Assembly: GCF_000018785.1 (NCBI RefSeq)
Contig: NC_010163.1
Location: 1,320,001-1,352,000, forward strand
Source of the DNA: Acholeplasma laidlawii PG-8A
GTDB taxonomy: Bacteria > Bacillota_I > Bacilli_A > Acholeplasmatales > Acholeplasmataceae
Length of the DNA stretch: 32,000 nucleotides
Direction: 5' to 3'
Shown: positions 1-18,887 of the stretch, one piece after another
How the letters are laid out: every line of letters begins with the position of its first letter
Position numbering within the stretch: the first letter of the stretch is position 1
Translations under genes and position numbers: made by a program
The notes under the pieces: model-generated
Database searches by the model: none
What the model was told of the DNA's origin: nothing
The model's input: the letters and a program-made list of their open reading frames with translations, nothing else

Positions 1-76
1 GCATCATATCTACAAATCCTGCAAGACCATCAAATGGTGAGTATTTGATAATACCTCTATCCGTATAAGGTCTCAT
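1..76 (-). CDS. YolD-like protein, N-terminal part only (gene runs off window start)
   Basis: The minus-strand ATG at 76..74 overlaps the TGA stop (75..73) of the upstream polymerase gene (ATGA coupling). The translation MRPYTDRGIIKYSPFDGLAGFVDMM resembles the DRG-x-IKW/Y-xPF signature of YolD-family partners of Gram-positive UmuC-like polymerases. Confidence 0.5.
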   Translation of the reverse strand, partial: MRPYTDRGIIKYSPFDGLAGFVDMM

Positions 77-2833: not shown

Positions 2834-2838
2834 TTATA

Positions 2839-4284
2839 CTAATCCTTTAATAGTATTGAAACTGCATTATATCCTATGAAAAAATCTATCTCTAATACAA
2901 GGATATTATCAACTAAACTCATATTTTCAGAAACTTCAAAAACTAAATTGAATTCATAAATACCTGGTTCTTTGATTTCCAAATCTATCCATGAATAATC
3001 ATTAATCGGTCTTAAACTGGCAAAATCAATAAAACCATAATATTTACTAATATCCTTATTAATATATGTGTTTTCTAAATGAAAATCGTTGTCATTATCA
3101 AGAGTATGATTTTTACCTTCAGTTTTTAATATACTAACATTAAGAATTAGATACTTGCTACCTTGAGGAGCGATTAAATGATTTTCTGAGTCGTTTTTAT
3201 TCAGCGTAGTTGCCTCATTTGAAAAACTCGCATTGGTAATCTTTATGGTATACACACCGTTTTCTAATATAGTATCTTCATTTATATTTATATATTCATC
3301 AAGAGGTACAAGTTCCTGATAATTTGCATACACAGTATAAACCAATTCATTCTCTGATGCATAAAAATATAAATCTCTGATTTTTGTTTCTGGGCTATCT
3401 TTTACACTTGACCAGTATAGAAATTGATAACCTTCTTTATAAGGTGTTGCAGTAGGCAATTCTTCAATTTGTCCTTTAGAAATGTTTATATCTATAATTT
3501 CTGATGAAGTTCCACCGTTGAAATCAAAATGAACATTATAATCATGAAGATTAGGACGTAAGATTAGAAAAACATTTTGTTCAATTCTATCCCAAGTATC
3601 AATTGAAAGCACCATTACTTGGGTAGAATTCAAAAATTCATCTGTTAAGAGAAAAGATAATTCAATGAATGAAGAAACACCATTATTTCTATATGGTTCA
3701 AATGTCTCAAATTGATTTGGATCACCTTTGATCACTTTATTTTTATTGCTAACTGCATTCTCAATACTACCTGTTATGTAATCCTCAGCAAAGCCAAGAG
3801 TTTCTTCAATGACATTAATGTCTCCTCCTATTGCACCAGATAACATAGCAGAAAAAGTAGCATTTGCCAATGCTTCCATAAAAATAGACATATTTGAGCG
3901 GGCATACATATCAACCAACCTTAATTCAAAATATTCAGATTTAATATCTTGTTGATTTACATTGATATCAGTATTCCATTGTTCAACTCTTATACTTAAA
4001 TTAAGCATATATTTTTCATCTTCTGTTTCAACAGCATTGATGCCAACCACCTTCATGAAAATTTCATCTGCAAAAACAAATTCTTCATATAAAAAGTTGT
4101 TGTTTTCATCATATTCCTCAACCAGTGGAGGATTATTTGTTGGTGGATTTTGATTAGTTATTGAGTTGTATATTGCTATACCAACTATTGCTAATATTAT
4201 GACTCCAAAAAGAATCCTTATAGACATTGGAATCTTTATTGTGATTAATTCTACAAACTTTTGTATGCCTTCTAAAAATTTCAT
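2839..4284 (-). CDS. Membrane-anchored surface protein with a Listeria-Bacteroides (InlB B-type) repeat and a DUF4352-like C-terminus
   Basis: 481-aa ORF with an AGGAGAG RBS. It has one N-terminal TM helix (ILFGVIILAIVGIAIY). HFDFNGGTSS...PYKEGYQFLYWS matches the FD-NGG...GY-F-GW repeat. The C-terminal GSKYLILNVSILKTEG...F-L region resembles DUF4352. Confidence 0.7.
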   Translation of the reverse strand: MKFLEGIQKFVELITIKIPMSIRILFGVIILAIVGIAIYNSITNQNPPTNNPPLVEEYDENNNFLYEEFVFADEIFMKVVGINAVETEDEKYMLNLSIRVEQWNTDINVNQQDIKSEYFELRLVDMYARSNMSIFMEALANATFSAMLSGAIGGDINVIEETLGFAEDYITGSIENAVSNKNKVIKGDPNQFETFEPYRNNGVSSFIELSFLLTDEFLNSTQVMVLSIDTWDRIEQNVFLILRPNLHDYNVHFDFNGGTSSEIIDINISKGQIEELPTATPYKEGYQFLYWSSVKDSPETKIRDLYFYASENELVYTVYANYQELVPLDEYININEDTILENGVYTIKITNASFSNEATTLNKNDSENHLIAPQGSKYLILNVSILKTEGKNHTLDNDNDFHLENTYINKDISKYYGFIDFASLRPINDYSWIDLEIKEPGIYEFNLVFEVSENMSLVDNILVLEIDFFIGYNAVSILLKD

Positions 4285-4332
4285 TTTCTCTCCTAATGTT
4301 AAACTACTTGCAATAGTTCACTTTATAAACCC

Positions 4333-4457: not shown

Positions 4458-7451
4458 TTATTTTCTAAGCTTTTTATAAAGTTCTTTAGCCATTGCATCC
4501 ATTACTCTTTCGTAAAAGGATGTGTCTGTAAATAATTTTTCAAATGACTCGTGATTTTCTGTAAATAATCTTAAGGCTATATCCTTGAATTTATCAGGAA
4601 ATAAACTCTTAATGAACATTTCTGGATTATTTTCTTTTGCGTATTGAGCATATTTTTTAACTTCTGGATCATTCATGAACATCTCAAAGATACCAGAAAT
4701 AATGACTTTATCACTATCAGTGAATTGTCCCATATATTGCTCATTAACCTTATCAATGATACTTTGAAGAGTGTCTTTAGATTTAGGTTTTCTTTTTGCA
4801 TCTACTGATTGCTCAGGTTTTAAATCAACTGATGTTTTTTCTAGTTCTATGCTTCCTTTATATGTCTCTTTAAGTTTGGCAAACTCTAGATTAATCTTGT
4901 CATCAATACTAATTTTTTCTGCAGTATCTTTAGGTAATAGATTGATTAGATAAGAAATGAACATAAACTCTTTAAAGAGTTCTTTATCATTAATTCTTAC
5001 GATTTGGGTGATATATGAATAGGCATGATTGAATTTTCTTAATAGATCCCTATATTCATATTTTTGTTTTTCATCCAACTCAAGATACTGATCTATGACA
5101 GGTTTTAGTATACTTGTTACACGGCCAAGTGCTTTATCGTCTTGTTTCTTTGCTGCATCTATTTTGATTTTGGCAAAAAGATCCACATCTTGATCGTTAT
5201 ATAGCATATAACTGTGTATCTTAGTTCTTAAATCATAGACACGATTATAATCTGTTTGGCCATCTAAATAGGTTGTTTCAAAGAATGGTTGGAATGACTT
5301 TTTCATGTCTTCATGCGTGTTTACAAAATCCATGACAAAAGTGTCTACCTTACCTGGATATACGCGATTCATTCTAGAAAGCGTTTGAACAGCATTCACA
5401 CCATGAAGTTTTTTATCAACATACATGGAATGTAGTAACGGTTCATCAAATCCTGTTTGATATTTATTTGCAACCACTAAGATATTGAATTTATCGCTTC
5501 TAAATGCTTTTCTGAGTTTCTTATCAGAATTAATATAATGACCTTCACTATCAATATTCATTTCAGCTTCTCTATATGATTTACCATCTAGCTTAACCTC
5601 TCCAGAAAATGCAACAAGTACCCCAATATTTGAAGTTATATCTGGATTATCTTTAATGTATTCTTGAATTGCATGATAATATCGGACAGCATTATGCCTT
5701 GAGTCAGCAACAACCATCGCTTTCGCTTTACCATCAATTCTAAATTGACCATTGTTTAAGAAGTTGTCCATAATAAGTTCGGTTTTCTTGTGAATGGTAA
5801 ACCCATGTTCTTTATAATAGCGAACTAAGACTCTCTTAGCTTGTCCTTCGATAACTTCAGGATTGTCTCTTGTTGTTCTAACTATCTTAAATTGATCTTG
5901 AAGTGTTGTATAGTATTTTAAGACATCTAAAATAAATCCTTCTTCAATGGCTTGTCTCATAGAGTAAACATGAAATGGTTCATGTTTTCCAGTGGATGGA
6001 TTTCTTCTGCCAAAAAGTTCAATTGTCTTATTTTTAGGCGTTGCAGTGAATGCAAAGAAAGATTGATTACTGTGTTGTCCTTGGGCTAATACTTCTGCAA
6101 CAAGTTCATCCGTATCATCGACTTCATCTTCTTCGATACCTTCCATCTCTGCATACTCTTTAATTGCAACTTTCTTATCAATCAGTGCCCTTCTTAAGGT
6201 CTTAGCACTTGCACCAGTTTGACCTTGATGCGCTTCATCCACGATAATCGCAAACTTTCTACCTTCCATTTCATCGAAATCTTTATAGGCAAACAAGAAT
6301 TTTTGAATGGTACAAATAATAATACGTTTCTTATCGTTAATTGCTTCCGTAAGGCCTCTTGAACGCTTTTTATCATCAATTGCTTCAACTAATCCAGCTC
6401 TATGCTCAAAGCCGTTAATCGTATCTTGTAGTTGTGAATCAAGTACTACACGGTCAGTAACAATGATAACTGAATCAAATATTGGTTTATCATCTATATC
6501 ATGGACAGATGCCAATCTATATGCAATCCAAGCGATAGAATTTGATTTACCGGATCCCGCACTATGTTCAATTAAATATTTTTGACCTACACCATTATCT
6601 TTAACGTCCGATAATACTTTCTTAACGACATCATACTGATGATATCTAGGAAATATTATTTTCTTTGAGTCTTTAGGATTAGAAATAAAACGATGAAGTA
6701 TGTCTATGATGGAATTTTTAGATAGTACATCTTCCCATAGATATGATGTGGTATAACCATAAGGGTTTTGCGGATTACCAGCGCCACCACTGACACCAGA
6801 ACCATTAGATCCTTGATTGAAAGGTAAGAAATGTGTATCAGCACCTTTAAGTTCTGTCGTCATCCATGTTTCATATAGGTCTACAGCAAAATAAACCAAT
6901 ATTCTATGATTGAATCTGAATATCAGTTCTTTTGGATCGCGATTGTAACGCCATTGGTGCATCGCATTTCTATAATCTTGTCCCTTTAATTGGTTTTTAA
7001 GTTCGATTGCAATAAAAGGAATACCATTAATGGATAGGACCATATCAATCGTATTGTTATTGAAAGGTGAATATGCAAATTGTCTTGTTACACCTAATAT
7101 GTTACCTTCATAACGTTCAACCAAAGTTGGATTCAACTCTGATTCAGGTTTAAAGAAACAGATAAAAAGGTCTATCCCCATATCTTTTATGCCATTTCTT
7201 AATACATGAAGAAGCCCGTGATGACTAATAGAATCTTCTAGTCTGCGATATAGTTTATTAGGTGCTTCATCACCATAATACTTTTCATATCGTTCCCATG
7301 ATTTACTTTGAGTCTTTTTAATAAACTCTACAAGGATATCTAGATAAATACCTTTTGATACATCATATCCTTGCATAGAAAGTTTTCTATACTCTTGATT
7401 AATCAAATGAGACTCTATATCCTCTTCAAACCTTTTTTCATTATCTTTCAT
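4458..7451 (-). CDS. hsdR: Type I restriction enzyme R subunit (HsdR)
   Basis: 997-aa ORF with a helicase Walker A motif (HSAGSGKSNS), a DEAH box (IIVDEAHQGQ), an N-terminal nuclease-type region and the typical C-terminal helical domain. It is the last gene after hsdM/hsdS. Confidence 0.95.
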   Translation of the reverse strand: MKDNEKRFEEDIESHLINQEYRKLSMQGYDVSKGIYLDILVEFIKKTQSKSWERYEKYYGDEAPNKLYRRLEDSISHHGLLHVLRNGIKDMGIDLFICFFKPESELNPTLVERYEGNILGVTRQFAYSPFNNNTIDMVLSINGIPFIAIELKNQLKGQDYRNAMHQWRYNRDPKELIFRFNHRILVYFAVDLYETWMTTELKGADTHFLPFNQGSNGSGVSGGAGNPQNPYGYTTSYLWEDVLSKNSIIDILHRFISNPKDSKKIIFPRYHQYDVVKKVLSDVKDNGVGQKYLIEHSAGSGKSNSIAWIAYRLASVHDIDDKPIFDSVIIVTDRVVLDSQLQDTINGFEHRAGLVEAIDDKKRSRGLTEAINDKKRIIICTIQKFLFAYKDFDEMEGRKFAIIVDEAHQGQTGASAKTLRRALIDKKVAIKEYAEMEGIEEDEVDDTDELVAEVLAQGQHSNQSFFAFTATPKNKTIELFGRRNPSTGKHEPFHVYSMRQAIEEGFILDVLKYYTTLQDQFKIVRTTRDNPEVIEGQAKRVLVRYYKEHGFTIHKKTELIMDNFLNNGQFRIDGKAKAMVVADSRHNAVRYYHAIQEYIKDNPDITSNIGVLVAFSGEVKLDGKSYREAEMNIDSEGHYINSDKKLRKAFRSDKFNILVVANKYQTGFDEPLLHSMYVDKKLHGVNAVQTLSRMNRVYPGKVDTFVMDFVNTHEDMKKSFQPFFETTYLDGQTDYNRVYDLRTKIHSYMLYNDQDVDLFAKIKIDAAKKQDDKALGRVTSILKPVIDQYLELDEKQKYEYRDLLRKFNHAYSYITQIVRINDKELFKEFMFISYLINLLPKDTAEKISIDDKINLEFAKLKETYKGSIELEKTSVDLKPEQSVDAKRKPKSKDTLQSIIDKVNEQYMGQFTDSDKVIISGIFEMFMNDPEVKKYAQYAKENNPEMFIKSLFPDKFKDIALRLFTENHESFEKLFTDTSFYERVMDAMAKELYKKLRK

Positions 7452-7455
7452 AGAT

Positions 7456-7878
7456 TCACCCCTTTAAAGTGTTTCTTTTCTTTACTAAAAATAATATTGT
7501 GAAAATCGTAATGATAGTTATCCCTAAAATACTCCAAGAAATTATGATGATATGTTCTTGTAAAAACATAATGAGTGCACTCAATGCAAATCCAATCATC
7601 GTTGAAACTACAAAATAAACATATTTCATTGCATCTGAATTAAATAGTCCGATTGAATTAAATATAATCCCAACCAAAGCATAAGACAGTATGAATGTCA
7701 GTGATTTAACAATGATTTCAATTGATGGAGATAATCCAAAATCAGTTAAACTTAATTGAAATATCCATAGAGTCAGTTTAATGAATTCACTAGTCAAATC
7801 TAGTAGGACCGAGAATACTCCAGTAGCAATTAGTATCAATAATATAATTCCACCAATCATTGACCTTACATCTCTCAT
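7456..7878 (-). CDS. Small integral membrane protein (about 4 TM helices) embedded in the Type I R-M operon
   Basis: 140-aa ORF with four roughly 20-aa hydrophobic segments. Its ATG directly abuts the hsdS stop codon, and its TGA lies 4 nt before the hsdR ATG. The hsdR RBS (AAGGGGTGA) lies in its last codons. Confidence 0.75.
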   Translation of the reverse strand: MRDVRSMIGGIILLILIATGVFSVLLDLTSEFIKLTLWIFQLSLTDFGLSPSIEIIVKSLTFILSYALVGIIFNSIGLFNSDAMKYVYFVVSTMIGFALSALIMFLQEHIIIISWSILGITIITIFTILFLVKKRNTLKG

Positions 7879-9198
7879 TTATGAAACTTCTTTCTTTCCT
7901 GTTACGTATTCGTAGATGAGGGATTTTTTATAATTATACAGTTCATCTATTTTTTTATTTTTTAGTTCAATAAGTTCATCAAGCCTTAAAACTTTATTGT
8001 CTAAATACTTAATTATTTTATTTTGATCATCTATAGGGGGTAATACAAACCTTAAGCCTCTTATAATTGTCATTGAAATATTCGGTTGTGCAGTAGCCTT
8101 TAAGTATTGATCTTTTTCGAAATTTGCTGCATTACTCATCAAGTAATATAACAAATATCTTAATGATATTCTATCTTCATGTGACTTTAAAATTTCAATT
8201 TTCGCCACATTTGGTGCTAATTGATGCAGTTTTTCTTCATTAAAAATAGCAACTTCGCCTACACCTGCTCCAATAAAAGTCATCAATATACATGGCTTAT
8301 CTAAATTAGATCTTACCAATTTTCTGGCAGTATCATTATTTATATATCCAGTAAAATCTTTAATAAATTTATCGTTTTTTATATTTTGAGCTCTAACAAT
8401 CGGAATATCATCAAATTCATTTATGTTCTTACTAAGAATCTCAGTAAATTCAAAACCAGCTAGTTTAGTTACAAATGTATGCCGAGAAATTAATGATACA
8501 TCATAATTTTTAGGGATTAATCCTATCCATTTGACATTACTATCTTTAAATTCTACATTTGGGTTTAAACCTTTAGTAACAACCTCACTAATAAGTGATT
8601 GCTTGTACTCTTTGAGTTTTTCGATTTGTTGCTTTTGATTATCTATCAATTTATTAATTATCAATGTTTTATTGCCTACATATAAGCTTATTCTAATTTG
8701 ATTATTTAACTCAGGGATAATCAAAGGTAAATTATTAACTATATCTGCATTTAAATTACTTTGGGTTGTTCCATTAGAAAAGTAGAAAATATTTTCTTTA
8801 GCTATCATAAGAAGAAATTTCAAGTAGTTTTTATCAATAGAAATTCCCATTTTAGGTATTAATGCTAAAATTGCTTGGCTAATTGTAGCCTTTGTTTTCA
8901 ACTCAGAAACCGAACCTAAAGATGCATAAATAGAGTACAAGATTGTTCCTGATTTAAGAATTTTTAAGTTTTTGTTTTTAATTCCTTTATCAGTCAGCTT
9001 TTTAGTCGTGTCAGTTATATACTCTGTATTAGTCATGTCAGATATGTTGACAAAACAAACACCTTCTTCTGCATAGTTACTATCTACTGATGATAAAGGA
9101 GTTCCACCGCTATATAGTTCATAAAAATGCTTGATTTTCATTTTCTTCCAGTTATCCGGAACGACACCATAAATATAATTTACATCATTCATTTCCAA
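7879..9198 (-). CDS. hsdS: Type I restriction enzyme specificity subunit (HsdS), two TRDs
   Basis: 439-aa ORF with two variable regions separated by a conserved helical spacer (KLIDNQKQQIEKLKEYKQSLISEVVTKG), repeated at the C-terminus (ELKNKKIDELYNYKKSLIYEYVTGK). It overlaps the hsdM end by 14 nt. Confidence 0.9.
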   Translation of the reverse strand: MEMNDVNYIYGVVPDNWKKMKIKHFYELYSGGTPLSSVDSNYAEEGVCFVNISDMTNTEYITDTTKKLTDKGIKNKNLKILKSGTILYSIYASLGSVSELKTKATISQAILALIPKMGISIDKNYLKFLLMIAKENIFYFSNGTTQSNLNADIVNNLPLIIPELNNQIRISLYVGNKTLIINKLIDNQKQQIEKLKEYKQSLISEVVTKGLNPNVEFKDSNVKWIGLIPKNYDVSLISRHTFVTKLAGFEFTEILSKNINEFDDIPIVRAQNIKNDKFIKDFTGYINNDTARKLVRSNLDKPCILMTFIGAGVGEVAIFNEEKLHQLAPNVAKIEILKSHEDRISLRYLLYYLMSNAANFEKDQYLKATAQPNISMTIIRGLRFVLPPIDDQNKIIKYLDNKVLRLDELIELKNKKIDELYNYKKSLIYEYVTGKKEVS

Positions 9199-10966
9199 AT
9201 AACTCCTTCATCAGTTGTGTCTCTTCTTCTTCAAGTTGTTTAATCTCAGCGAATATATCTGAGGAGGCCTTTGGAGGAATAAACTTATAAAACAGTCTTG
9301 TAAATGGTATTTCATAACCGACTTTGTCTTTGCTTCGATCCATCCAAGCTGATGAATTATAAGGTAATACATTATCTTTAAAGAAAGCTTCGATATTTTC
9401 TTGTAATGGTACCAATTCAGTATCACGTTTCTTAGAGTCTGCTTGAAGTTTTCCTTTTTTAAGAATTGGTTTACCATTTTCATCTGTAATTGGTGATTCA
9501 ACAGTTACTTTTGTGTACCCAAAGAAATCATTATCAAAGATTTTTGATTCAACAACTAAGTCATTTTCTTCATATTTTACTTCTTTGAAATCTAAATAGG
9601 CTTTAGTAATTAAGTCAATTGATGTATCATCTAGGTCAACACGCTTCTTACCAATGTTTTTTCTTCTTTTCACATAGCAATTAGAAGCATCAATGAGTTG
9701 AATTTTTCCTAATCGTTCTTTATTTTTATTTTTAGAAACTATCCAAACATATGTTGATATACCAGTATTGTAGAAAAGGTCAGTTGGTAATTGAATAATT
9801 GCTTCTAACAAATCACTTTCAATTAAGTATTTTCTAATTTCACTCGGACCACTACCAGCATCTCCAGTAAAGAGTGAAGACCCGTTTTGAATGATTGCCA
9901 TTCTACCAGAACCTTCTTTTAATTTCTTTACACCATTAAGTAGGAAGAGCATTTGTCCATCACTAATTGCAGGCAACCCTGGTCCAAATCTGCCATCATA
10001 ACCTAATTTAGCATATTCTTGTTTGACTTGTTTTTCTTCAAGCTTCCAATCAATACCAAACGGTGGATTAGAAATGATATAGTCAAATTCATAATTTGAA
10101 AATTGATCGTCACTTAGTGTATCGCCAAACTTCATGTTTTGAGCGTTTCCACCTTTGATGAGCATATCGGCTTTTGCGATTGCATAGGTTTCTGGATTAA
10201 ACTCTTGACCAAATAGAGATAACTTTGAATCGAAGTTAATCTCTTTCATTTTCTCATCAAGACAACCTAACATCTGTGATGTTCCCATAGCCATGTCATA
10301 TGCAGTTTTAACGACACCATTTTGTTTAATATGTTCTTTTTCGTTTGCAACTAATAACTCAGCCATCAAATAAATGATGTCTCTTGAAGTAAAGTGAGCC
10401 CCTGCTTGTTCATCATAGGATTCAGAGAACTTACGGATAAGTTCTTCAAAAATATAGCCCATGTCCATGGAGGTGATTTTATCCGGATGCATATCAGCTT
10501 TCTTAGAATTAAACTCCTGTATAACAACATAAAGGACATTCCCTTTATGCATTGTTTCTAGGACTTGTTCAAATTTAAAGTTGGAAATAATATCTTTTAC
10601 GTTATCAGAGAATCCTTTTAAGTATGTATCAAAATTAGATGCGATGTTATCTGGATCAGCTAAAAGGTTTTCAAATGTAAATGGGCTAACATTATAAAAG
10701 TCATATCCAGTAGTTTTGCATATTAATCCATCTTTAATTGCATCAATCGTTTTTTGTTCATTTAATTTCTTATTGAGTGATAAAACTTCCTGTTTCGTTT
10801 CTTTTAAAGCGTCATCAAATCTTTTTAGTACCGTCATCGGTAAGATAACCTTACCGTACTCATGTGGCTTAAATAATCCAACAAGATGATTAGCGATTGC
10901 CCAAATTAGATTTGCTTTCTCTTGAATATTGGTTGTAGTTAATTTACCTATCTCTGCAGTTGTCAT
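9185..10966 (-). CDS. hsdM: Type I restriction enzyme methyltransferase subunit (HsdM)
   Basis: 593-aa ORF with a canonical N6-adenine MTase motif IV (IISNPPFGIDW), an HsdM_N-like N-terminus (NLIWAIANHL..) and the downstream GRMAIIQNGSSLF / IIQLPTDLFYNTGI motifs. Confidence 0.95.
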   Translation of the reverse strand: MTTAEIGKLTTTNIQEKANLIWAIANHLVGLFKPHEYGKVILPMTVLKRFDDALKETKQEVLSLNKKLNEQKTIDAIKDGLICKTTGYDFYNVSPFTFENLLADPDNIASNFDTYLKGFSDNVKDIISNFKFEQVLETMHKGNVLYVVIQEFNSKKADMHPDKITSMDMGYIFEELIRKFSESYDEQAGAHFTSRDIIYLMAELLVANEKEHIKQNGVVKTAYDMAMGTSQMLGCLDEKMKEINFDSKLSLFGQEFNPETYAIAKADMLIKGGNAQNMKFGDTLSDDQFSNYEFDYIISNPPFGIDWKLEEKQVKQEYAKLGYDGRFGPGLPAISDGQMLFLLNGVKKLKEGSGRMAIIQNGSSLFTGDAGSGPSEIRKYLIESDLLEAIIQLPTDLFYNTGISTYVWIVSKNKNKERLGKIQLIDASNCYVKRRKNIGKKRVDLDDTSIDLITKAYLDFKEVKYEENDLVVESKIFDNDFFGYTKVTVESPITDENGKPILKKGKLQADSKKRDTELVPLQENIEAFFKDNVLPYNSSAWMDRSKDKVGYEIPFTRLFYKFIPPKASSDIFAEIKQLEEEETQLMKELFGNE

Positions 10967-11024
10967 ATTATCTCTTCTTTCTTATTTCATTAGCAATACA
11001 AAAATCGATCTTCATATTAAAAAA

Positions 11025-11033
11025 ATTATAACA
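11025..11033 (-). promoter_or_regulatory. Possible extended -10 promoter (TGtTATAAT) for hsdM
   Basis: The minus strand reads TGTTATAAT about 59 nt upstream of the hsdM ATG. No clear -35 element. Confidence 0.35.
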
Positions 11034-11056
11034 TATTTTAGCAACTTTTAACTTTG

Positions 11057-11073
11057 ATTGTTTATTAAACAAT
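11057..11073. repeat. Perfect palindrome ATTGTTTA-T-TAAACAAT in the hsdM upstream region
   Basis: 8-bp arms with a 1-nt centre, read directly. It lies about 24-40 nt upstream of the putative -10 element. Confidence 0.6.
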
Positions 11074-11108
11074 ATCATTCTTCCATTTTTATAAAACCTA
11101 TTAATAGT

Positions 11109-11630
11109 CTAATATTCATCTAAAGCATCGAAATAGCGTGTTGATATAATGGCTTTTTCGAAGTTTGTTTTAGTAATTTTTAATTTGTTATTTGCTTCTA
11201 AAAATTGTACACGTGGATACTCTGATGGATTACTTTTTATTGTAGCTATAAGACTAGAATTATCACCCATACCTGTTTGACTATGCGGAATAGGTCCAAT
11301 TAGTAGATCTGAATACTTTGTTGAAAACCTAAGTGTATCAACCGGGTATCTCTTGAGTTCTGAATAGTCATCAATAAACTCAACATTATTTAGATTAATA
11401 TCTAGTCTAGTTAATACTCCTTGGAAGTCCTTTTTCTTTCCCGCTAATGATCCAAATACTAGGATTTTCATTAGTCTCGTGTTTACAGAAATGCTTGTTT
11501 CCTCAAATACAATACCATATCGTTCTAAAATCTCTTCAATTAATCCATCTTCATTAGCACGGTCAACTTCACTTGATATTTTTCTAATAATTTTTTGTTT
11601 TATCTCGGATAACTGCTTTGCATTATACAC
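11109..11630 (-). CDS. Uncharacterised 173-aa protein coupled to the M-S fusion gene
   Basis: The GTG start overlaps the upstream TAG stop by 1 nt (TAGTG), with a strong AGAGGAGG RBS 10 nt upstream. It has a helical N-terminus followed by an alpha/beta region (KILVFGS...YSDLLIGPIPHS) that loosely resembles DUF2325. An LD-x14-ELK pattern could alternatively be a PD-(D/E)xK nuclease core. Neither assignment is secure. Confidence 0.6.
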   Translation of the reverse strand: MYNAKQLSEIKQKIIRKISSEVDRANEDGLIEEILERYGIVFEETSISVNTRLMKILVFGSLAGKKKDFQGVLTRLDINLNNVEFIDDYSELKRYPVDTLRFSTKYSDLLIGPIPHSQTGMGDNSSLIATIKSNPSEYPRVQFLEANNKLKITKTNFEKAIISTRYFDALDEY

Positions 11631-13309
11631 TAAGATAGTACCTCCTCTATTTCTTCATAATAGAAGTTTTTGAGTTCGTCTTCTATCTTTAGGATTTCTG
11701 CCTTAAGTGCCATTAAAGAAGATAGTTTTCTATTATATTTTTTAGATATATTATATTGAACATCTAGTTGAGGTAGTGGGATAATTATATTCGAAAGTTC
11801 TGTAGCGTTAATTGTAATTATCGATATACCTTTTTGAATACTCTTTAATAATAATTGTCCTTGATCTGATTCTAAGAAAACCTTAAGAAATGTTGGATTC
11901 AATTTACTCTTGTCAACACGAGCAATGATCATACCACCAGTTACAATAATTTTATCCTTTGGTTCAAAATCGATGACTGCTATTTTAACCTTAGATGATT
12001 TGCTTGTTATAATGACATCCTCATATTCCAAAGCAAATTTATCTAACTTACCATCTTTATTATCGATATTTTGTAGATTTGATTCATCAATGAGTCCGTC
12101 TTGTATATCACTAGATGTAAGCAATTTATAACCTGTATTTTCATCAGTTAATGCTTCTTGAAAGTTTCTAACTGTGTATTGTGAGCCTGTAAAAACATGT
12201 GCAACCTCACTCAATTTAACACCATTTATTGGTGAATCTATTGTTAATAGTGCTGTCGAAGGAATCCAATTAGATAAATCTGTTAATTCTGAAATATCTT
12301 TTTTAGCTACATCATTTCCATAATAGAAATCTATTATTTGTTTTACATCTACTTTAATAGGTCCATTAAACTTTCTTTTTGATGAGAACATACTCGCATC
12401 AAATAGACGAACATTCTTATTATTTTTACTAAAGATAAGTAAGAATAACTTGATCGATGTATTATCGACAATTCCTTGTGGTAACTCAATGATACCTTCA
12501 AGCATGCCACTCTTTAGTATTTCATTTCGATAGTCTCTATCAACTGCACTAAATAATGTACGACCAGTAACAAGCGCTACCGCTCTAGCGTCTTCACCTT
12601 TTAAATTGCTTAATAATTTATCAATAAATATCCATTCAACAGAGTTTCGAGTGGATAGAACAATATTTTTAAAAATAGAAATATAGTTTAGATCATTACC
12701 CATTAACTTCATACCTAAAGGTGGATAGACAAACCCTTTATTATAAGTTAGTTCGTATTTATCGGTTAGGATATTAGCATAGTTAATCTTACTCTTTACC
12801 GAAGAATCAAAGGTGAATATTTCTAGTACCATCTTAGAAAGTGCATGTTGATTATAGTTAATTTCCACACCATATAAAGCAGACAACTCAATTGAACGTT
12901 CCTGAGCTAAATTCAATGTACCAATTAAAAAACCACCTAATCCACTACCTAAATCAAAAAGTGAATCACCATTTGATAGTTCAAGTAACTCTGAAGCTAA
13001 TGCTAACAGATTATCATTCGAATTATCCATAAATCTCTGTTTTATAAATAGAGAACTAGAAACGAATCCTTTTATTTCATCGAAACTTAAGTCCAAAAAC
13101 ATATTTTCTAAATCAAATTTTAGGTCACTTGGTATTCTTTCTAATGATTCTCCAGCAATGTTAAGTAATTCTGTTTCATTTCCCGGTATTAAATCATTAC
13201 TATTGCAATAATCATATGCAAATGAAATAACAAATTCAACCACCATTTCTTCAGGCACACGTCCTCTGACTCTGTTTGCAAATTCCCATACTAAATTTTT
13301 ATTTTCCAT
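11630..13309 (-). CDS. HsdM-like N6-adenine methyltransferase fused to a single HsdS-type TRD, with non-canonical motif IV (YPPL)
   Basis: 559-aa ORF with SAM motif I (LFDLGSGLGGFLIG), motif II-like YGVEIN and the HsdM-type ARAVALVTGRTLFS / GIIELPQGI motifs. Where NPPF/Y is expected the sequence reads FVYPPLG. The C-terminal roughly 200 aa form one TRD plus an HsdS conserved helix (IIPLPQLDVQYNISKKYNRKLSSLMALKAEILKIEDEL). Confidence 0.8.
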   Translation of the reverse strand: MENKNLVWEFANRVRGRVPEEMVVEFVISFAYDYCNSNDLIPGNETELLNIAGESLERIPSDLKFDLENMFLDLSFDEIKGFVSSSLFIKQRFMDNSNDNLLALASELLELSNGDSLFDLGSGLGGFLIGTLNLAQERSIELSALYGVEINYNQHALSKMVLEIFTFDSSVKSKINYANILTDKYELTYNKGFVYPPLGMKLMGNDLNYISIFKNIVLSTRNSVEWIFIDKLLSNLKGEDARAVALVTGRTLFSAVDRDYRNEILKSGMLEGIIELPQGIVDNTSIKLFLLIFSKNNKNVRLFDASMFSSKRKFNGPIKVDVKQIIDFYYGNDVAKKDISELTDLSNWIPSTALLTIDSPINGVKLSEVAHVFTGSQYTVRNFQEALTDENTGYKLLTSSDIQDGLIDESNLQNIDNKDGKLDKFALEYEDVIITSKSSKVKIAVIDFEPKDKIIVTGGMIIARVDKSKLNPTFLKVFLESDQGQLLLKSIQKGISIITINATELSNIIIPLPQLDVQYNISKKYNRKLSSLMALKAEILKIEDELKNFYYEEIEEVLS

Positions 13310-13334
13310 AACTACCTCTCACTTTCATAATTTA

Positions 13335-13363
13335 AGTTTACACAAACGTAATTCAAAAGTCAA
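13335..13363 (-). promoter_or_regulatory. Sigma-70-type promoter of the M-S fusion operon
   Basis: The minus strand has TTGACT (13363..13358), a 17-nt spacer and TAAACT (13340..13335), followed by a GAGAGGTAG RBS and the ATG at 13309. Confidence 0.55.
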
Positions 13364-13411
13364 GCGCTTTTTTAAGTTTGTTAAAACGTAATGATAAATA
13401 GCGCCCGAAAT

Positions 13412-13444
13412 ACAAAAAAGGTCTGATACAAATTGTATCAAACC
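13412..13444 (-). terminator. Rho-independent terminator of the tRNA cluster
   Basis: Minus-strand hairpin GGTTTGATACA-ATT-TGTATCAGACC followed by TTTTTTGT, just downstream of tRNA-Leu. Confidence 0.7.
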
Positions 13445-13458: not shown

Positions 13459-13543
13459 TGGTGCGGGTGACAGGACTTGAACCTGCATGCCGTAAAGCGC
13501 TAGATCCTAAGTCTAGTGCGTCTGCCAATTTCGCCACACCCGC
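13459..13543 (-). tRNA. tRNA-Leu (anticodon UAG), type II with a long variable arm, CCA encoded
   Basis: Hand-folded. Acceptor GCGGGTG/CACCCGC plus A-CCA; anticodon stem CTAGA/TCTAG with loop CTTAGGA; T-loop TTCAAGT. Confidence 0.85.
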
Positions 13544-13570
13544 ATGGATAGTGGACTTTCTTTATAAAAA

Positions 13571-13645
13571 TGGCAGGCCCAGCAGGATTTGAACCTACGA
13601 GTGACGGAGTCAAAGTCCGTTGCCTTACCGCTTGGCTATGGGCCT
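13571..13645 (-). tRNA. tRNA-Gln (anticodon UUG), CCA encoded
   Basis: Hand-folded. Acceptor AGGCCCA/TGGGCCT plus G-CCA; anticodon stem ACGGA/TCCGT with loop CTTTGAC; T-loop TTCAAAT. Confidence 0.85.
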
Positions 13646-13668
13646 ACATTTTATTTAATTCGCAATTA

Positions 13669-13745
13669 TGGGGCGGCCGAGGGGAATTGAACCCCCGAGT
13701 GTCGGCGCCACAAGCCGATGCGTTAACCACTTCGCCACAACCGCC
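13669..13745 (-). tRNA. tRNA-His (anticodon GUG) with genomically encoded G-1, CCA encoded
   Basis: Hand-folded. G-1 followed by acceptor GCGGTTG/CGGCCGC plus C-CCA; anticodon stem TCGGC/GCCGA with loop TTGTGGC; T-loop TTCAATT. Confidence 0.85.
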
Positions 13746-13763
13746 ATACTTTGCGCAAGTATT

Positions 13764-13791
13764 ATTATACCAACTTATTTTATTTTGTAAA
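13764..13791 (-). promoter_or_regulatory. Promoter of the tRNA-His/Gln/Leu cluster
   Basis: The minus strand has TTTACA, a 16-nt spacer ending in TGg, and TATAAT, about 18 nt upstream of the tRNA-His 5' end. Confidence 0.6.
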
Positions 13792-13874
13792 GTTAAAATT
13801 TCGGAAAAATAAGTTTTTTATATCCTTTACAAGATATATTTGATATTATATAAAAGAAAGGAAGTAATTGCAAG

Positions 13875-14927
13875 ATGAAATGGATTGGAAGAATACTATA
13901 TATTTTATTTGTTTTAATCGTAATTGGCTTTATTGAACTAATCGGTGGCGGTGTACAAGGTATCCGTGTATCAGAGTATATCTACAATAATGTAACAAAA
14001 AACGCTATAGATAATGAAAATTACGATATGTTTGAGGGTTTAGGCCACTTAAACGCTGTTTCAAACACTTACTACTCAAAAGATCAAATTAAAACATTAG
14101 ATGGTCAAAACTTCTATGATACGACTACAGAATCAATTGATGAAAAATATCAAGTAAAACTTGGTATGTACCCACATGCAGTAGTCCACAAAAACCCACA
14201 ATTTGATTTATACAGTGATGGCTTCTTTGTTTTACTTGAAGATTTTTCAGATGATGTTGCATATTATAGTTTAGAAGTTACTGCATACTATGCACAAGAC
14301 CCTGAGAAAAAACAAATTGTTTTAAAAGATAAAAATTATTTAAATATCTATTCTGACATAAGAGCATCAAACGCAAATAGAGCATCATTTAGAGTAGCTC
14401 TAATTGCTAATAATAGTTTTGCAAATCACATTTTAGAAACAAACAAAGATTATACCTTCCCAGAAGGATATAACTTTGAATACCACATTCAAGCAATCGA
14501 TGTGTTTGCAACAATCATTGATCCTGAAAAACCAGATACTCCAGAACGTGTACATGTCTACAGAATTACTGATGGTACTACCTTCGCTTCTGGTACACCA
14601 ATGGTAACTCATACGAACCTTAACCTAGCACCTGAAAACTATAACTTCTCAAGAGGAATGAATGGTGTAGAACCAACAGCTGATAATAACCCACACAACT
14701 TAGTGCTTGATTATCACCCAGCAGACTTATCACCATATAACTTTGCTTACTGGATTGTATATTCAATCTACTTCTTATTATTTGTTGTAGTACCTTACTT
14801 CTGGTTTGTTCATAAATATGTTATGAAAGCTATTAGAAAAAATAAGGCCGATGATGAGCCAAAAGGCAAAATAAGAAAACCACAACCTCAACTATTTAGT
14901 GACGTTGAACCTAAGAGCGATAAATAA
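13875..14927 (+). CDS. Hypothetical membrane protein (N- and C-terminal TM helices, large extracytoplasmic middle)
   Basis: 350-aa ORF with an N-terminal TM helix (ILYILFVLIVIGFIELIGG), a C-terminal TM helix (WIVYSIYFLLFVVVPYFWFV) and a basic tail. No recognisable enzyme motif. Confidence 0.75.
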   Translation: MKWIGRILYILFVLIVIGFIELIGGGVQGIRVSEYIYNNVTKNAIDNENYDMFEGLGHLNAVSNTYYSKDQIKTLDGQNFYDTTTESIDEKYQVKLGMYPHAVVHKNPQFDLYSDGFFVLLEDFSDDVAYYSLEVTAYYAQDPEKKQIVLKDKNYLNIYSDIRASNANRASFRVALIANNSFANHILETNKDYTFPEGYNFEYHIQAIDVFATIIDPEKPDTPERVHVYRITDGTTFASGTPMVTHTNLNLAPENYNFSRGMNGVEPTADNNPHNLVLDYHPADLSPYNFAYWIVYSIYFLLFVVVPYFWFVHKYVMKAIRKNKADDEPKGKIRKPQPQLFSDVEPKSDK

Positions 14928-14942
14928 TCGCTCTTTTTTTTA
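14915..14942 (+). terminator. Rho-independent terminator
   Basis: GAGCGAT-AAATA-ATCGCTC followed by T9. The stop codon lies in the loop. Confidence 0.8.
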
Positions 14943-14953
14943 TTTTTCCATTA

Positions 14954-15000
14954 AATATGATGTAAACATATGCGATGCAACCAAAAGTTTACATCATATT
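14954..15000. promoter_or_regulatory. Perfect 14-bp inverted repeat (AATATGATGTAAAC ... GTTTACATCATATT), a candidate operator upstream of the XRE gene
   Basis: Arms at 14954..14967 and 14987..15000 with a 19-nt spacer, about 70 nt upstream of the ATG at 15070. Confidence 0.4.
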
Positions 15001-15069
15001 ACCTTAAAGTTGGTGGTATTGATATTTAGATTTGCTAAAATATAAGTAACATTTATTAGGAGGATTCAT

Positions 15070-15765
15070 ATGACTACAGGTCAAAGACTTGCAAAACTAA
15101 GAAAAGATCACAATTATACTCAAGAGGAGTTAGGTGAGTTACTAGATGTATCTAGACAATCTATATCCAAATGGGAATCTGATCAAGCATTTCCAGAAAC
15201 ACAAAAATTAATAGAGTTATCCAAACTCTATCAGACTTCAGTAGATTATCTACTTGGCAATGAAAACGAACATACACAATCCAATATAGGTGATTCTACT
15301 CATACCAATGAACCATTTAAAATGACACCTAAGTTATTTACAATGATTTGGGGTGTCACATATTTTGTAGTGATGTTACTTCTATATGCAGTACCCATAT
15401 TAAAAGTTACAATCACTACAGATCCGTTCTTTGGTAACATTGGTTTTACACTCAATATCACCAGTTATGACTTACTTAAAAACGGACCTGGTGATTACGG
15501 CAACTTCTTAGTATATTTGGGTTTGTTTGCTTTAATTGCATTTACTGCACTATCTGTCTTTATCTTTTTTACAAATCATCAAAGACTTTATAAGATACGC
15601 CGAATTATCTCAATCACTGAAGTAATTATATGGGCTATATTTACAGTATCCTTTATAGAAAGTATTCAATTAGGGATCATATTTATTATCTTACTTACTA
15701 TAATTAACCTAATATTACTATTTAAAGTCAAAAATAATCTAATTTCTACACCTATAAGCGCTTAA
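15070..15765 (+). CDS. XRE-family HTH protein with a multi-pass membrane C-terminal domain
   Basis: The N-terminal sequence QRLAKLRKDHNYTQEELGELLDVSRQSISKWESDQAFPETQKLIELSKLYQTSVDYLLG is a classic HTH_3 (Cro/C1) domain. The C-terminal half has about 4 hydrophobic helices. An AGGAGGA RBS is present. Confidence 0.85.
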   Translation: MTTGQRLAKLRKDHNYTQEELGELLDVSRQSISKWESDQAFPETQKLIELSKLYQTSVDYLLGNENEHTQSNIGDSTHTNEPFKMTPKLFTMIWGVTYFVVMLLLYAVPILKVTITTDPFFGNIGFTLNITSYDLLKNGPGDYGNFLVYLGLFALIAFTALSVFIFFTNHQRLYKIRRIISITEVIIWAIFTVSFIESIQLGIIFIILLTIINLILLFKVKNNLISTPISA

Positions 15766-15792
15766 TAACAGCCTAAAACACCATAATTTAAT

Positions 15793-15847
15793 AAAATTAA
15801 GTTTTCAATGATATGATTTGTTCATTTTCAATTGAAAACTTAATTTT
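15793..15847 (+). terminator. Long hairpin (17-bp perfect stem, 21-nt loop) downstream of the XRE gene, a probable terminator
   Basis: AAAATTAAGTTTTCAAT ... ATTGAAAACTTAATTTT. The 3' arm ends in TTTT and contains the -35 element of the tRNA-Trp promoter. Confidence 0.45.
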
Positions 15848-15860
15848 GTTATGCTATACT
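15832..15860 (+). promoter_or_regulatory. Sigma-70-type promoter of tRNA-Trp
   Basis: TTGAAA, a 17-nt spacer and TATACT, ending 14 nt before the tRNA 5' end. Confidence 0.65.
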
Positions 15861-15874
15861 AATAAGGCGTGAAC

Positions 15875-15949
15875 GGGGGCATGGTGTCAACGGTAGCACA
15901 CAGGTCTCCAAAACCTTTAGTGTGGGTTCGAATCCTGCTGCCCTCGCCA
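15875..15949 (+). tRNA. tRNA-Trp (anticodon CCA), CCA end encoded
   Basis: Hand-folded. Acceptor GGGGGCA/TGCCCTC plus G-CCA; anticodon stem CAGGT/ACCTT with loop CTCCAAA; T-loop TTCGAAT. Confidence 0.85.
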
Positions 15950-15962
15950 TCTAATAATAAGC

Positions 15963-15991
15963 AATGTTGCATACGATGCAGCATTTTTTTT
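15963..15991 (+). terminator. Rho-independent terminator after tRNA-Trp
   Basis: AATGTTGCAT-ACG-ATGCAGCATT (one G:U pair) followed by a T8 run. Confidence 0.8.
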
Positions 15992-16054
15992 ATACACTCG
16001 ACTATAATTGCTCTTCTTGCAATAATAGTCTAATTAGGTTTTTAGTCTAAATCA

Positions 16055-16063
16055 TGCTATAAT
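16055..16063 (+). promoter_or_regulatory. Extended -10 promoter (TGcTATAAT) of the mgtA leader
   Basis: Read directly, 25 nt upstream of the leader ORF start. Confidence 0.5.
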
Positions 16064-16087
16064 GAAAAAAGAAAGAGGTGAACAACT

Positions 16088-16171
16088 ATGGAAGATTCTC
16101 AGAGTAGGTATTACAAAGTGCATAATTTCAATAAATACGGCTTAATTAAGCAAGAGAATTTTTATGGTTGA
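16088..16171 (+). CDS. Candidate 27-aa leader peptide upstream of mgtA
   Basis: An AAAGAGGTGA RBS lies 7 nt before the ATG. Translation: MEDSQSRYYKVHNFNKYGLIKQENFYG, ending in TGA. The ORF lies between a promoter and an intrinsic terminator that precede mgtA. Confidence 0.4.
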   Translation: MEDSQSRYYKVHNFNKYGLIKQENFYG

Positions 16172-16250: not shown

Positions 16251-18887
16251 ATGAAAAAAGAAAAAACATTTAACACAGTAAACACGACTTCTAGTTTAGA
16301 AGATAAGTTAATACAAAACGCACACATAGATAAACAATCTCTATTTAACAAATACAACACAAGTCAAAACGGGCTTTCAACTGATGAAAGTATATTAAGA
16401 TTTGAAACATACGGGAAAAATGTTATCACATCTAAACAAAAGGATTCTAAATTTAGAAGACTACTCTCATCTATTGTAAATCCATTTAACTTGATATTGA
16501 TTGCTATTGCAATTATTACTTTCTTAACAGATGTTATTTTTGTAAAGGGTAACCCTGATTTTTTAACTGTTATTATTATCTTTATACTCGTAACAGTATC
16601 TAGTTCTATTTCATTTATGCAAAGCGAGAAATCCCGTAATGCAGTTGAAGAACTCACAAATCTTGTAACAAACAATTCAAATATACTGCGAGATGGAAAA
16701 TGGATAGAAATACCTATTGAAAATATAGTACCTGGAGATATCATAAAACTAGCTGCAGGTGATATGATACCTGCAGATATTAGATTTCTAACTACAAAGG
16801 ATACCTTTGTTGCACAATCTGCACTAACAGGGGAATCACACCCTGTTGAAAAATTTAGTAACATAAGTTCAAAAGATATAGACATTATCACCGATTTAGA
16901 TAACATTGGCTTTATGGGATCTAATATATTAAGTGGCAGTGCAACTGCACTTGTCATCTCAACAGGTAATCACACCTACTTTGGATCTATGGCAAAAACA
17001 TTATCTGGTGATAATGCCACAAAGAGTTTTGAACGAGGCGTTTCTTCAATTAGTAGACTTTTAATAAGCTTAACTCTTATAATGGTACCCATGGTGTTTT
17101 TAATTAACGGAATTATTAAACAAGACTGGCTTCAATCATTAATGTTTGCTATTAGTATAGCAGTTGGATTAACACCTGAAATGTTGCCTGTTATCATGAC
17201 AACAACACTTGCTAAGGGTGCTGTTAGCATGTCAAAACATAAAGTCGTTGTGAAAAATCTTGGGACTATCCAAACATTTGGTGAAATGGACATCTTATGT
17301 ACAGACAAGACAGGAACATTAACAGAAGATAAAATCGTATTAGAAAAATATATGAATCTTCACGGTGAAGATGATGATAGAGTGCTTCGTCATGCTTTCT
17401 TAAACAGTTATTTTCAAACTGGACTTAAAAATCTAATTGACCTTGCGATTATAAACCGTGCTACAAAAAAAGATCTAAAACCATTGACTACACGCTATGA
17501 AAAAATAGATGAAATTCCATTTGATTTTTCACGAAGAAGAATGAGTGTAGTATTAATTGATAAAGATAATAAACGTCAACTTATCACCAAAGGTGCAGTT
17601 GAAGAGATGCTTGAAATTTCTAAATTTGTTGAAATCAATGGCCAAGTATTAGAATTAACTGATGCATATAAGAAATTTGCAATGGCTACATATGAAAAAT
17701 ACAACAAAGAAGGCTTAAGAATTATTGCAGTTGCACAAAAAAATGAAGTTCCAAAAGAACATATCTTTAGTGTAAAAGATGAATCTAATATGGTACTAAT
17801 TGGTTTTGTAGGGTTTTTAGATCCACCTAAAAAAAGTGCTTCTATTGCGATTAACAAACTTAGAGATCACGGAGTTAGAACAATCGTTCTAACTGGTGAT
17901 AGCGAAGGTGTTACAGCAAAAGTTTGTAAAGAAATCGGAATTAGCATTGATCATATAATTTCAGGTAATGAAGTTGATTCACTAAGTGATCAAGATTTAA
18001 AAGAAAAACTTAAAATATGTAACATATTTGCAAAATTATCACCTAATCAAAAACAAAGAATTGTGAAGTTATTACAAGAAGAGGGACATACAGTCGGATT
18101 TTTAGGTGATGGTATTAATGATGCTCCAGCACTTCACCAAGCTGATGTTGGTATTTCAGTAGATTCTGCTGTTGATATTGCAAAAGAAACTGCAGATATC
18201 GTACTACTAGAAAAAGATTTAGTAGTACTAGAAGAAGGCGTTCTTGAAGGTAGAAAAACTTTTGGTAATATTATGAAATATATCAAAATGGCTACCAGTG
18301 GAAATTTCGGTAACATGATATCTGTAATTGTTGCAAGTATATTTCTTCCATTCTTACCTATGCTACCAGTCCAACTCTTGGCACAAAACTTACTCAATGA
18401 TTTTTCACAAGTAGGTATGGCTTTTGACAACGTTGATAAGGAATATATCTATAAACCCCATAAATGGAATTCAAAAAGTGTATTAAGATTTACTTTAGTT
18501 ATGGGACCACTAAGTTCTATTTTCGATATCTTATGCTTTTCTATCCTATGGTGGGTAATCGGAACCAACACTGTACAAATGGCACCATTATTCCAAGCTG
18601 GATGGTTTGTATTTGGGACAGTCTCACAAATCTTAGTTATTTATGTAATTAGAACTCAAAAGTTATCCATTATTGAAAGTAGACCATCTAAAATATTATT
18701 TATCTCAACTTTATTTGTGGCATTAATTGCTATAGTTATAGGATTTACTGACATTGGTGTAGCAATTGATATTGACAGACTTCCTATAAGTTTTATATTA
18801 TGGTTATCTATATTATCATTAGCATATATGATAAGTGCTGAACTTGTCAAAAAGATATATCTAAGAAGGTATAACGAATGGATCTAA
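16251..18887 (+). CDS. mgtA: Magnesium-importing P-type ATPase
   Basis: 878-aa ORF with the phosphorylation motif CTDKTGTLT, the hinge GDGINDAPAL, TGES, and length and topology typical of MgtA/MgtB. A GGGAGG RBS is present. Confidence 0.9.
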   Translation: MKKEKTFNTVNTTSSLEDKLIQNAHIDKQSLFNKYNTSQNGLSTDESILRFETYGKNVITSKQKDSKFRRLLSSIVNPFNLILIAIAIITFLTDVIFVKGNPDFLTVIIIFILVTVSSSISFMQSEKSRNAVEELTNLVTNNSNILRDGKWIEIPIENIVPGDIIKLAAGDMIPADIRFLTTKDTFVAQSALTGESHPVEKFSNISSKDIDIITDLDNIGFMGSNILSGSATALVISTGNHTYFGSMAKTLSGDNATKSFERGVSSISRLLISLTLIMVPMVFLINGIIKQDWLQSLMFAISIAVGLTPEMLPVIMTTTLAKGAVSMSKHKVVVKNLGTIQTFGEMDILCTDKTGTLTEDKIVLEKYMNLHGEDDDRVLRHAFLNSYFQTGLKNLIDLAIINRATKKDLKPLTTRYEKIDEIPFDFSRRRMSVVLIDKDNKRQLITKGAVEEMLEISKFVEINGQVLELTDAYKKFAMATYEKYNKEGLRIIAVAQKNEVPKEHIFSVKDESNMVLIGFVGFLDPPKKSASIAINKLRDHGVRTIVLTGDSEGVTAKVCKEIGISIDHIISGNEVDSLSDQDLKEKLKICNIFAKLSPNQKQRIVKLLQEEGHTVGFLGDGINDAPALHQADVGISVDSAVDIAKETADIVLLEKDLVVLEEGVLEGRKTFGNIMKYIKMATSGNFGNMISVIVASIFLPFLPMLPVQLLAQNLLNDFSQVGMAFDNVDKEYIYKPHKWNSKSVLRFTLVMGPLSSIFDILCFSILWWVIGTNTVQMAPLFQAGWFVFGTVSQILVIYVIRTQKLSIIESRPSKILFISTLFVALIAIVIGFTDIGVAIDIDRLPISFILWLSILSLAYMISAELVKKIYLRRYNEWI

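Follow-up and report, generated by a model that had tools for sequence, protein, structure and literature searches.

Introduction

Only a handful of regulator families are known to govern bacterial immune operons, nearly all of them studied in Proteobacteria. CapW/BrxR, CapH with CapP and CapK with CapS form an established class of regulator modules upstream of diverse immune operons, in which a repressor acts at palindromic promoter sites and a partner conveys the signal (PMC13373217). Here we analyse a pair of genes from Acholeplasma laidlawii PG-8A that has no homology to these controllers but is placed in the same way. It lies on the minus strand of a stretch of 32,000 nucleotides (nt) (contig NC_010163.1, positions 1,320,001 to 1,352,000), which we call the window and to whose first letter all coordinates refer unless another locus is named. 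The first gene (11630..13309) encodes a 559-residue fusion of HsdM with half of HsdS, and the second (11109..11630) a 173-residue partner. Like the Cap-type controllers and RptR, the pair belongs to the one- and two-gene modules found directly upstream of varied defence operons. Its promoter also carries conserved, clade-specific palindromes, which are candidate sites for a repressor. A Pfam scan found in neither protein a WYL, helix-turn-helix (HTH), peptidase, kinase or STAS domain. DNA would instead presumably be bound by a domesticated Type I methyltransferase/specificity fusion, and the family is distributed among Mollicutes and gut Firmicutes. We propose, with a probability of roughly 0.55, that a dimer of this pseudo-methyltransferase, partnered by the small protein, represses transcription from the promoter of the pair and governs the neighbouring immune operon.

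Several described systems share components with the pair. Ronin (HsdS, HsdM and RonA) likewise combines a Type I methyltransferase core lacking HsdR with a tightly linked small protein; it functions independently of methylation chemistry and is linked to restriction–modification (R-M) or BREX loci (bioRxiv 10.1101/2023.04.06.535777). The HsdM of Ronin retains NPPF and its subunits are separate, whereas in the pair they are fused and NPPF is lost. RonA is a 61-residue peptide with a predicted transmembrane helix, encoded upstream; the partner described here is predicted to be a soluble α/β protein and is encoded downstream. Unlike Ronin, the pair has conserved promoter palindromes and counts CRISPR-Cas among its neighbours.

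The architecture of the fusion has parallels among active enzymes. An engineered fusion of HsdM with half of HsdS (M–½S), made from the Staphylococcus aureus CC398 Type I enzyme, dimerizes and recognizes the palindrome ACC-N5-GGT (PMC6158711). Natural half-S systems are AhdI and the 'intact MTase' of V. vulnificus (PDB 7EEW). In these and in the engineered protein, an S subunit with a single target-recognition domain (TRD) accompanies HsdM, either fused or as a bound chain, and dimerizes to read a palindrome; the 559-residue protein shares the single TRD joined to HsdM. All three are active methyltransferases that have a canonical motif IV and work with a nuclease, whereas the 559-residue protein lacks the catalytic residues and has a conserved TRD. 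Esub1 of S. pyogenes (SpyM3_0890; PDB 8VSQ/8VSR) is a half-HsdS homodimer without R-M partners, which its authors proposed to be a transcription factor and whose DNA cleft is blocked by a phage protein. Unlike the fusion, Esub1 lacks both a methyltransferase domain and a conserved small partner. Pseudo-methyltransferases of the METTL14 type combine an MT-A70/N6-methyltransferase fold with a degenerate motif IV (EPPL) and serve as nucleic-acid-binding scaffolds; unlike the fusion, they are eukaryotic, bind RNA, act as heterodimer partners of an active enzyme and are not transcription factors. Our search of the literature found no relevant account of an M–S pseudo-enzyme regulator or of an A. 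laidlawii methylome.

Loss of the catalytic motif across the fusion family

Both open reading frames (ORFs) are as described in a first-pass annotation of the window, down to the TAGTG in which the GTG start of the partner gene overlaps the TAG stop of the fusion, and to the AGAGGAGG ribosome-binding site (11641-11648, minus strand) 10 nt upstream of that GTG. The fusion, which starts with ATG, matches Pfam N6_Mtase over residues 102-359 (7e-20; 71.9 bits against a cut-off of 20.4) and Methylase_S over residues 364-524 (1e-4; 23 bits against a cut-off of 22). Type I specificity models of PADLOC match it as well, the best being Specificity_I at 3e-19. An AlphaFold2 (AF2) model, with a predicted local distance difference test score (pLDDT) of 86.8, shows a helical N-terminal domain, a methyltransferase fold, a single TRD (residues ~361-514) and a 44-residue C-terminal coiled-coil helix (515-558), in agreement with the HsdM–half-HsdS architecture first proposed. 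With one TRD per chain instead of two, and a TRD that is conserved instead of variable, the fusion departs from the definition of HsdS. In a structural search, the best match to the model is the V. vulnificus 'intact MTase' chain crystallized with Ocr (7EEW, E = 3e-21), with CamA, PacII, M.TaqI and other Type I M subunits as further neighbours. Among solved structures, a profile search finds Esub1 nearest in sequence to the TRD and helix (E = 1.7e-15).

At motif IV, the site of the catalytic tetrad (D/N/S)PP(Y/F/W), the fusion reads YPPL (residues 195-198). EcoKI reportedly loses activity when the Asn of its NPPF is substituted. A phmmer alignment with EcoR124 HsdM places fvYPPLgmk opposite vsNPPYsvk, and a scan of the 559-residue protein for an alternative found no other xPPx and no [DNS]P[PA][YFW], so that YPPL does occupy the motif IV position to which it had been assigned. 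Motif I (FDLGSGLGGF), which binds S-adenosylmethionine (SAM) and had likewise been recorded as intact, and motif II (GVEIN) are both preserved.

The fusion family comprises at least 211 homologues. Inspection of the motif IV column gives [FY]PP[LFI] in essentially all of ~120 full-length members with 40-94% identity, the canonical tetrad being lost, and the same sequences retain D-x-G-S-G-x-G at motif I and G-x-E-I-N at motif II. The non-canonical YPPL is thus a family-wide state and no local decay. D119, G123 and G125 are invariant among 69 fusion sequences. More distant clades, which were reached via the partner gene, read SSPM, HMPF, NYPI, EFPW or DYPR at motif IV, and still have the glycines of motif I and the acidic residue of motif II. 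A catalytic tetrad that drifts freely in proteins that keep their fold and SAM site argues for a pseudo-enzyme derived from an active ancestor. One clade (locus L106, fusion at 2573-4294) retains the canonical NPPF; it still has the partner gene and operators of the form GGTTT-N4-AAACC, is followed after 19 nt by a Type I operon, and may represent the active ancestral state.

Within the fusion, the TRD has a mean pairwise identity of 69%, compared with 57% in the methyltransferase domain and 40% in the N-terminal domain. The TRD is also the best-conserved region in the distant clades, which fits a constant ligand. Such hyper-conservation is the reverse of what genuine HsdS subunits display. 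The same pair is present in Acholeplasma laidlawii strain 8195 (locus L006), with 96% identity to that of the window; despite this, the canonical HsdS of strain 8195 (12112-13359 of that locus) matches the window HsdS (7879-9198) only at E = 6e-45. The divergence of HsdS beside a nearly identical pair points to TRD exchange between the two A. laidlawii strains. The hsdR gene of strain 8195 is apparently split into two ORFs (13787-16168 and 16274-16780).

Conserved palindromes at the pair promoter

The pair has its own promoter at the place where the first-pass annotation had put it: TTGACT-17-TAAACT, 13363-13335 on the minus strand, with the −35 hexamer at 13358..13363 and the −10 hexamer TAAACT at 13335-13340. 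Two palindromes 40 bp apart, GTTTTAACAAAC (13387-13376) and GTTTGTGTAAAC (13347-13336), flank TTGACT. They form the GTTT-N4-AAAC cores of two longer putative operators on the minus strand, a distal one upstream of the −35 hexamer (TTAcGTTTTAACAAACTTAA, 13372..13391) and a proximal one (TTAcGTTTGTGTAAACTTAA, 13332..13351) whose 3' arm supplies the −10 hexamer.

This arrangement recurs across the family. In a first set of loci the palindrome was present in 16 of 17, against a maximum of 6 in shuffles. Among 73 unique promoters, 66 hold at least two perfect GTTT-N4-AAAC sites (two or three) around the −35 and −10 positions. In 64 of these 66 the operators enclose a TTGAC-like −35 hexamer, and in 33 promoters the proximal operator begins exactly 10 nt after the −35 hexamer, its arm forming the −10. 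Promoter segments of 280 bp from 75 loci contain 149 sites, and the density of 7.1 per kb in these segments compares with 0.061 per kb elsewhere, a 116-fold difference. A position weight matrix widens the element to the 20-bp palindrome TTAnGTTT-N4-AAACTTAA. Divergent clades carry other palindromes at equivalent positions, namely GGTTA-N4-TAACC (L108, L110) and ATTCTT-N4-AAGAAT (L022), and the L102 promoter has TAATCT-N6-AGATTA twice, again at equivalent positions. Since the fusion and the small gene are the only genes common to all loci, the reader of these operators is almost certainly encoded by the pair.

The partner protein

The coupling of the small gene to the fusion, first noticed in the window, extends through the family. 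A homologous ORF of ~175 residues directly follows the fusion in all 20 testable loci (phmmer E 1e-35 to 1e-109). Approached from the small-protein side, the fusion is directly upstream in 92 of 105 loci; the 13 remaining loci comprise 11 that are truncated at a contig end, L093 with its fusion gene in fragments, and L025, a 357-residue variant located elsewhere. The small-protein family has 840 cluster representatives at 50% identity, most members being 170-180 residues long. Given these and the homologues of the fusion, neither gene is a chance ORF.

Judged by profile searches, the 173-residue protein is a new family; it had resisted placement before, and no meaningful match was found in Pfam, NCBIfam, PADLOC or PHROG, the only hit being MetOD2 at 18 bits (cut-off 30.6). 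A sequence search of the PDB returned nothing, and tblastn against plasmids and phages gave no match. In the AF2 model (pLDDT 87.8), a long N-terminal helix precedes a four-stranded parallel α/β domain that resembles flavodoxins and receiver domains. Foldseek searches of PDB and BFVD gave generic neighbours only, of the receiver, flavodoxin or Elp456-like kinds (E ≥ 7e-3, TM ≤ 0.4), which we did not use. G60, S107, D108 and G112 are invariant among 116 members, and K55, G64, P113, P115, H116, S126 and K151 are retained in at least 113 of the 116. In the model the conserved residues cluster at strand ends, which suggests a ligand or active-site pocket. The N-terminal helix carries the conserved lysines K13, K17 and K37.

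Three identities that had been floated for the protein, or for the pair as a whole, were rejected. The supposed nuclease pattern LD-x14-ELK has a spacing of 13 residues, not 14. As for a PD-(D/E)xK core, D77 is Gly in 104 of 116 members, E91 is variable and the model is a parallel, four-stranded flavodoxin-like sheet without a significant structural neighbour. The likeness to DUF2325 (PF10087) is one of pattern only, with no match at E ≤ 1 in the 116 members. An AhdI-like hybrid of a methyltransferase and a small nuclease would need a catalytic motif that the fusion lacks and a nuclease signature that is absent from the partner.

The α/β domain of the small protein also occurs at the C terminus of longer proteins (287-420 residues) that are encoded without a fusion (L112, 4082-7263; L114, 5298-6864; L025, 8001-9074). 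One of these genes belongs to a Type III R-M/helicase island, where it follows a gene for a 640-residue protein, and another adjoins a class I SAM methyltransferase and a metallophosphatase. These longer carriers (P0313, P0387, P0304) stand in other contexts, with the fusion absent, and gave no clue to function.

The pair as 5' leader of immune operons

In the window, a complete Type I R-M system adjoins the pair on the same strand, as the first-pass annotation had it, with the correction that it is the pair that lies transcriptionally upstream of the Type I genes. We counted neighbourhoods in 59 non-redundant loci with at least 4 kb of downstream sequence. A Type I R-M system follows the pair immediately and on the same strand in 52 of them (88%), and, where both flanks are available, such systems lie downstream in 27 cases versus upstream in 1. 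The Type I systems led by the pair differ in family and in gene order (M-S-R, R-M-S). The gap between the pair and hsdM can be as short as 19-24 nt, and no terminator-like hairpin was found in 60 of 68 gaps behind the pair.

Other immune systems take the same place. In four loci (L098, L100, L101 and L105; for example L098, 188-9284), the pair directly precedes a complete CRISPR-Cas I-C operon with Cas3, Cas5d, Csd1, Cas7 and Cas4. These loci belong to a divergent clade of the pair and have identical GTTTATAAAAAC operators. Further cargo outside Type I comprises GmrSD, AIPR, a Cap4-nuclease/TIR cluster and a Dam/AIPR cluster. At L040 (7824-10210) the pair is followed by a 104-residue remnant of an HsdR C terminus and a split GmrSD (Type IV) gene, which suggests that the cargo was swapped behind a retained control module. 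In L005 (17734-21196) and also L004, inverted extra copies or fragments of hsdS and a Phage_integrase gene lie downstream of the Type I operon led by the pair, in an arrangement that resembles a phase-variable hsdS shufflon.

A model for the pair and competing explanations

Taken together, the family-wide loss of motif IV, the conserved TRD, the promoter palindromes and the position at the 5' end of varied immune operons favour a module for transcriptional control, either in place of the sensor/effector pair first suggested or alongside that role. In the mechanism that we infer, the 559-residue protein would descend from a Type I methyltransferase core by fusion of HsdM with half of HsdS, and would have lost the catalytic tetrad while keeping the SAM pocket, the single TRD and the dimerization helix. 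Because the engineered M–½S fusion dimerizes and the TRD is nearest to that of Esub1, we take the fusion to be a probable dimeric reader of palindromes. A homodimer would present two identical TRDs, which together would read the 20-bp palindrome, one copy of it upstream of the −35 hexamer and one overlapping the −10. By occupying the −10 and the spacer, or the 5' untranslated region, the dimer would repress the promoter of the pair. Through transcriptional read-through the repression would extend to the downstream immune operon, here hsdM-hsdS-orf140-hsdR. The 173-residue α/β protein, as an obligatory partner, would most likely modulate the repressor, be it as sensor, co-repressor or anti-repressor, though it may also be an effector. 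Type I methyltransferases need SAM for specific DNA binding; the retained pocket could mean that SAM is a cofactor for operator binding, or could couple repression to SAM levels. The earlier idea that a pseudo-methyltransferase is used here for recognition would hold in this mechanism. With it stand the architecture, the coupling and the promoter, whereas the nuclease hybrid and the DUF2325 assignment are given up.

Several points weigh against this mechanism. The operators could be bound by the small protein, or by a complex of both proteins, instead of by the fusion. The 4-bp spacer of the palindrome is shorter than the spacers of characterized Type I sites. Palindromes in a promoter are also typical of autorepressed modules of the toxin–antitoxin kind, and by themselves they cannot separate a regulator from an autoregulated defence pair. 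The L106 fusion, with its canonical NPPF, might be an active enzyme. The cargo genes have no systematic operators of their own, only 5 sites being found 0-1200 nt past the small gene in 75 loci. Control of Type I expression would hinge on the assumed read-through, and hsdM in the window has promoter-like sequences of its own.

The main rival, which we regard as possible though rather unlikely, is a Ronin-like pair of decoy and effector. Here the dead M–½S dimer would mimic a Type I core and, in the manner of PrrC, hold the 173-residue protein inactive; binding of phage anti-restriction proteins, DNA mimics such as Ocr or ArdA, would free it as a growth-arresting effector, and the palindromes would serve autoregulation of the toxin–antitoxin style. 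The precedent is close, in that Ronin consists of HsdM, HsdS and a small effector, is triggered by Ocr, ArdA or Aop1 and does not need methyltransferase catalysis (bioRxiv 10.1101/2023.04.06.535777). The adjacency of Type I R-M in 88% of loci, the crystallization of the top structural neighbour (7EEW) with Ocr and a gene overlap like that of a toxin–antitoxin pair agree with such a guard, as would the strictly conserved pocket of the small protein (G60, S107, D108, G112; P113, P115, H116, K151) if it were catalytic. However, the small protein has no membrane helix, no match to a toxin or nuclease family and no homology to RonA. A stand-alone guard does not require strict, co-directional 5' placement (27 versus 1), and a Type I decoy makes less sense ahead of CRISPR-Cas I-C, GmrSD and AIPR operons. 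Nor would a decoy aimed at DNA mimics call for a TRD that is so strongly conserved and matched to a palindrome in the promoter.

In a more speculative proposal, which we consider doubtful, the dead M–½S dimer would be a transcriptional decoy: sitting on its operator, it would mimic the Type I methyltransferase core, and phage DNA mimics of the Ocr/ArdA type, or SAM lyases, would dislodge it and so derepress the adjacent immune operon, be it Type I R-M, CRISPR-Cas I-C, GmrSD or AIPR, with the 173-residue protein tuning or executing the response. If true, this would be the first transcription factor made from an R-M enzyme and the first immune regulator to sense counter-defence directly.

It is less probable still that the operators are read by the small protein or by a host factor, leaving the fusion with another job such as binding modified or foreign DNA, or SAM. 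The conserved lysines K13, K17 and K37 in the N-terminal helix of the small protein would suit a DNA-binding role, and a 20-bp operator is longer than the usual pair of Type I half-sites. Yet the small protein has no HTH, ribbon-helix-helix or other known DNA-binding fold, whereas the TRD is a dedicated DNA-reading domain and the most conserved segment of the fusion, and half-S dimers are known to read palindromes. It is highly improbable that the fusion is an active methyltransferase, be it an orphan or second N6-methyladenine enzyme whose motif IV is unusual or the AhdI-like companion of a small nuclease. In favour are the intact motifs I and II and the NPPF of one distant clade. Against it, Phe or Tyr stands in place of N/D/S throughout the family, other clades show a wide range of tetrads, the candidate nuclease residues are unconserved in a fold that is not PD-(D/E)xK, and the TRD lacks the diversification seen in R-M specificity domains.

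If a fusion dimer does act as repressor at the pair promoter, a large unannotated regulator family would be added to those known to govern immune operons, its DNA-reading part taken over from a Type I methyltransferase. The operator–protein pair would be directly testable, the sequence of the operator being available. The mechanism would also account for thousands of database entries named 'N-6 DNA methylase' that probably do not methylate, and would caution against counting them as R-M methyltransferases in surveys of methylomes and defence systems. Finally, it would provide a natural case of a half-HsdS dimer becoming a transcription factor, on which there has so far only been speculation (PMC6158711).

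Other features of the locus

All features of the island described here lie on the minus strand, in the order of transcription. Its upstream edge is marked by a cluster of tRNA-His, tRNA-Gln and tRNA-Leu genes (13459..13744, located with ARAGORN). A terminator-like hairpin (13420..13444) with an 11-bp stem followed by TTTTTTGT ends the tRNA transcript and would insulate the pair promoter from it. Behind the pair, a 142-nt spacer (10967..11108) separates the gene for the 173-residue protein from hsdM; it contains promoter-like hexamers and lacks a terminator-like hairpin, so that read-through into hsdM and an hsdM promoter in the spacer are both possible on the sequence.

The presumed cargo of the control module, the Type I R-M operon (4458..10966), is complete and comprises hsdM with the canonical NPPF (9185-10966), hsdS with two TRDs (7879-9198), a gene for a 140-residue protein (7456-7878) and hsdR (4458-7451). 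The 140-residue protein has no match in Pfam, NCBIfam or PHROG. Homologues occupy the same operon position in strain 8195 (1.8e-73) and in a locus with a different Type I family (L013, 6e-7), and the gene may serve Type I operons as an accessory in the style of PrrC.

On the opposite strand, the three tRNA genes are overlapped by an ORF of 80 residues (13570-13812, plus strand), which is almost certainly spurious. Beyond hsdR lie a gene for a surface-repeat protein and two genes without a Pfam match; they are followed, a few kb past hsdR, by a gene for a Y-family (ImpB/MucB) DNA polymerase (73-1353, minus strand).

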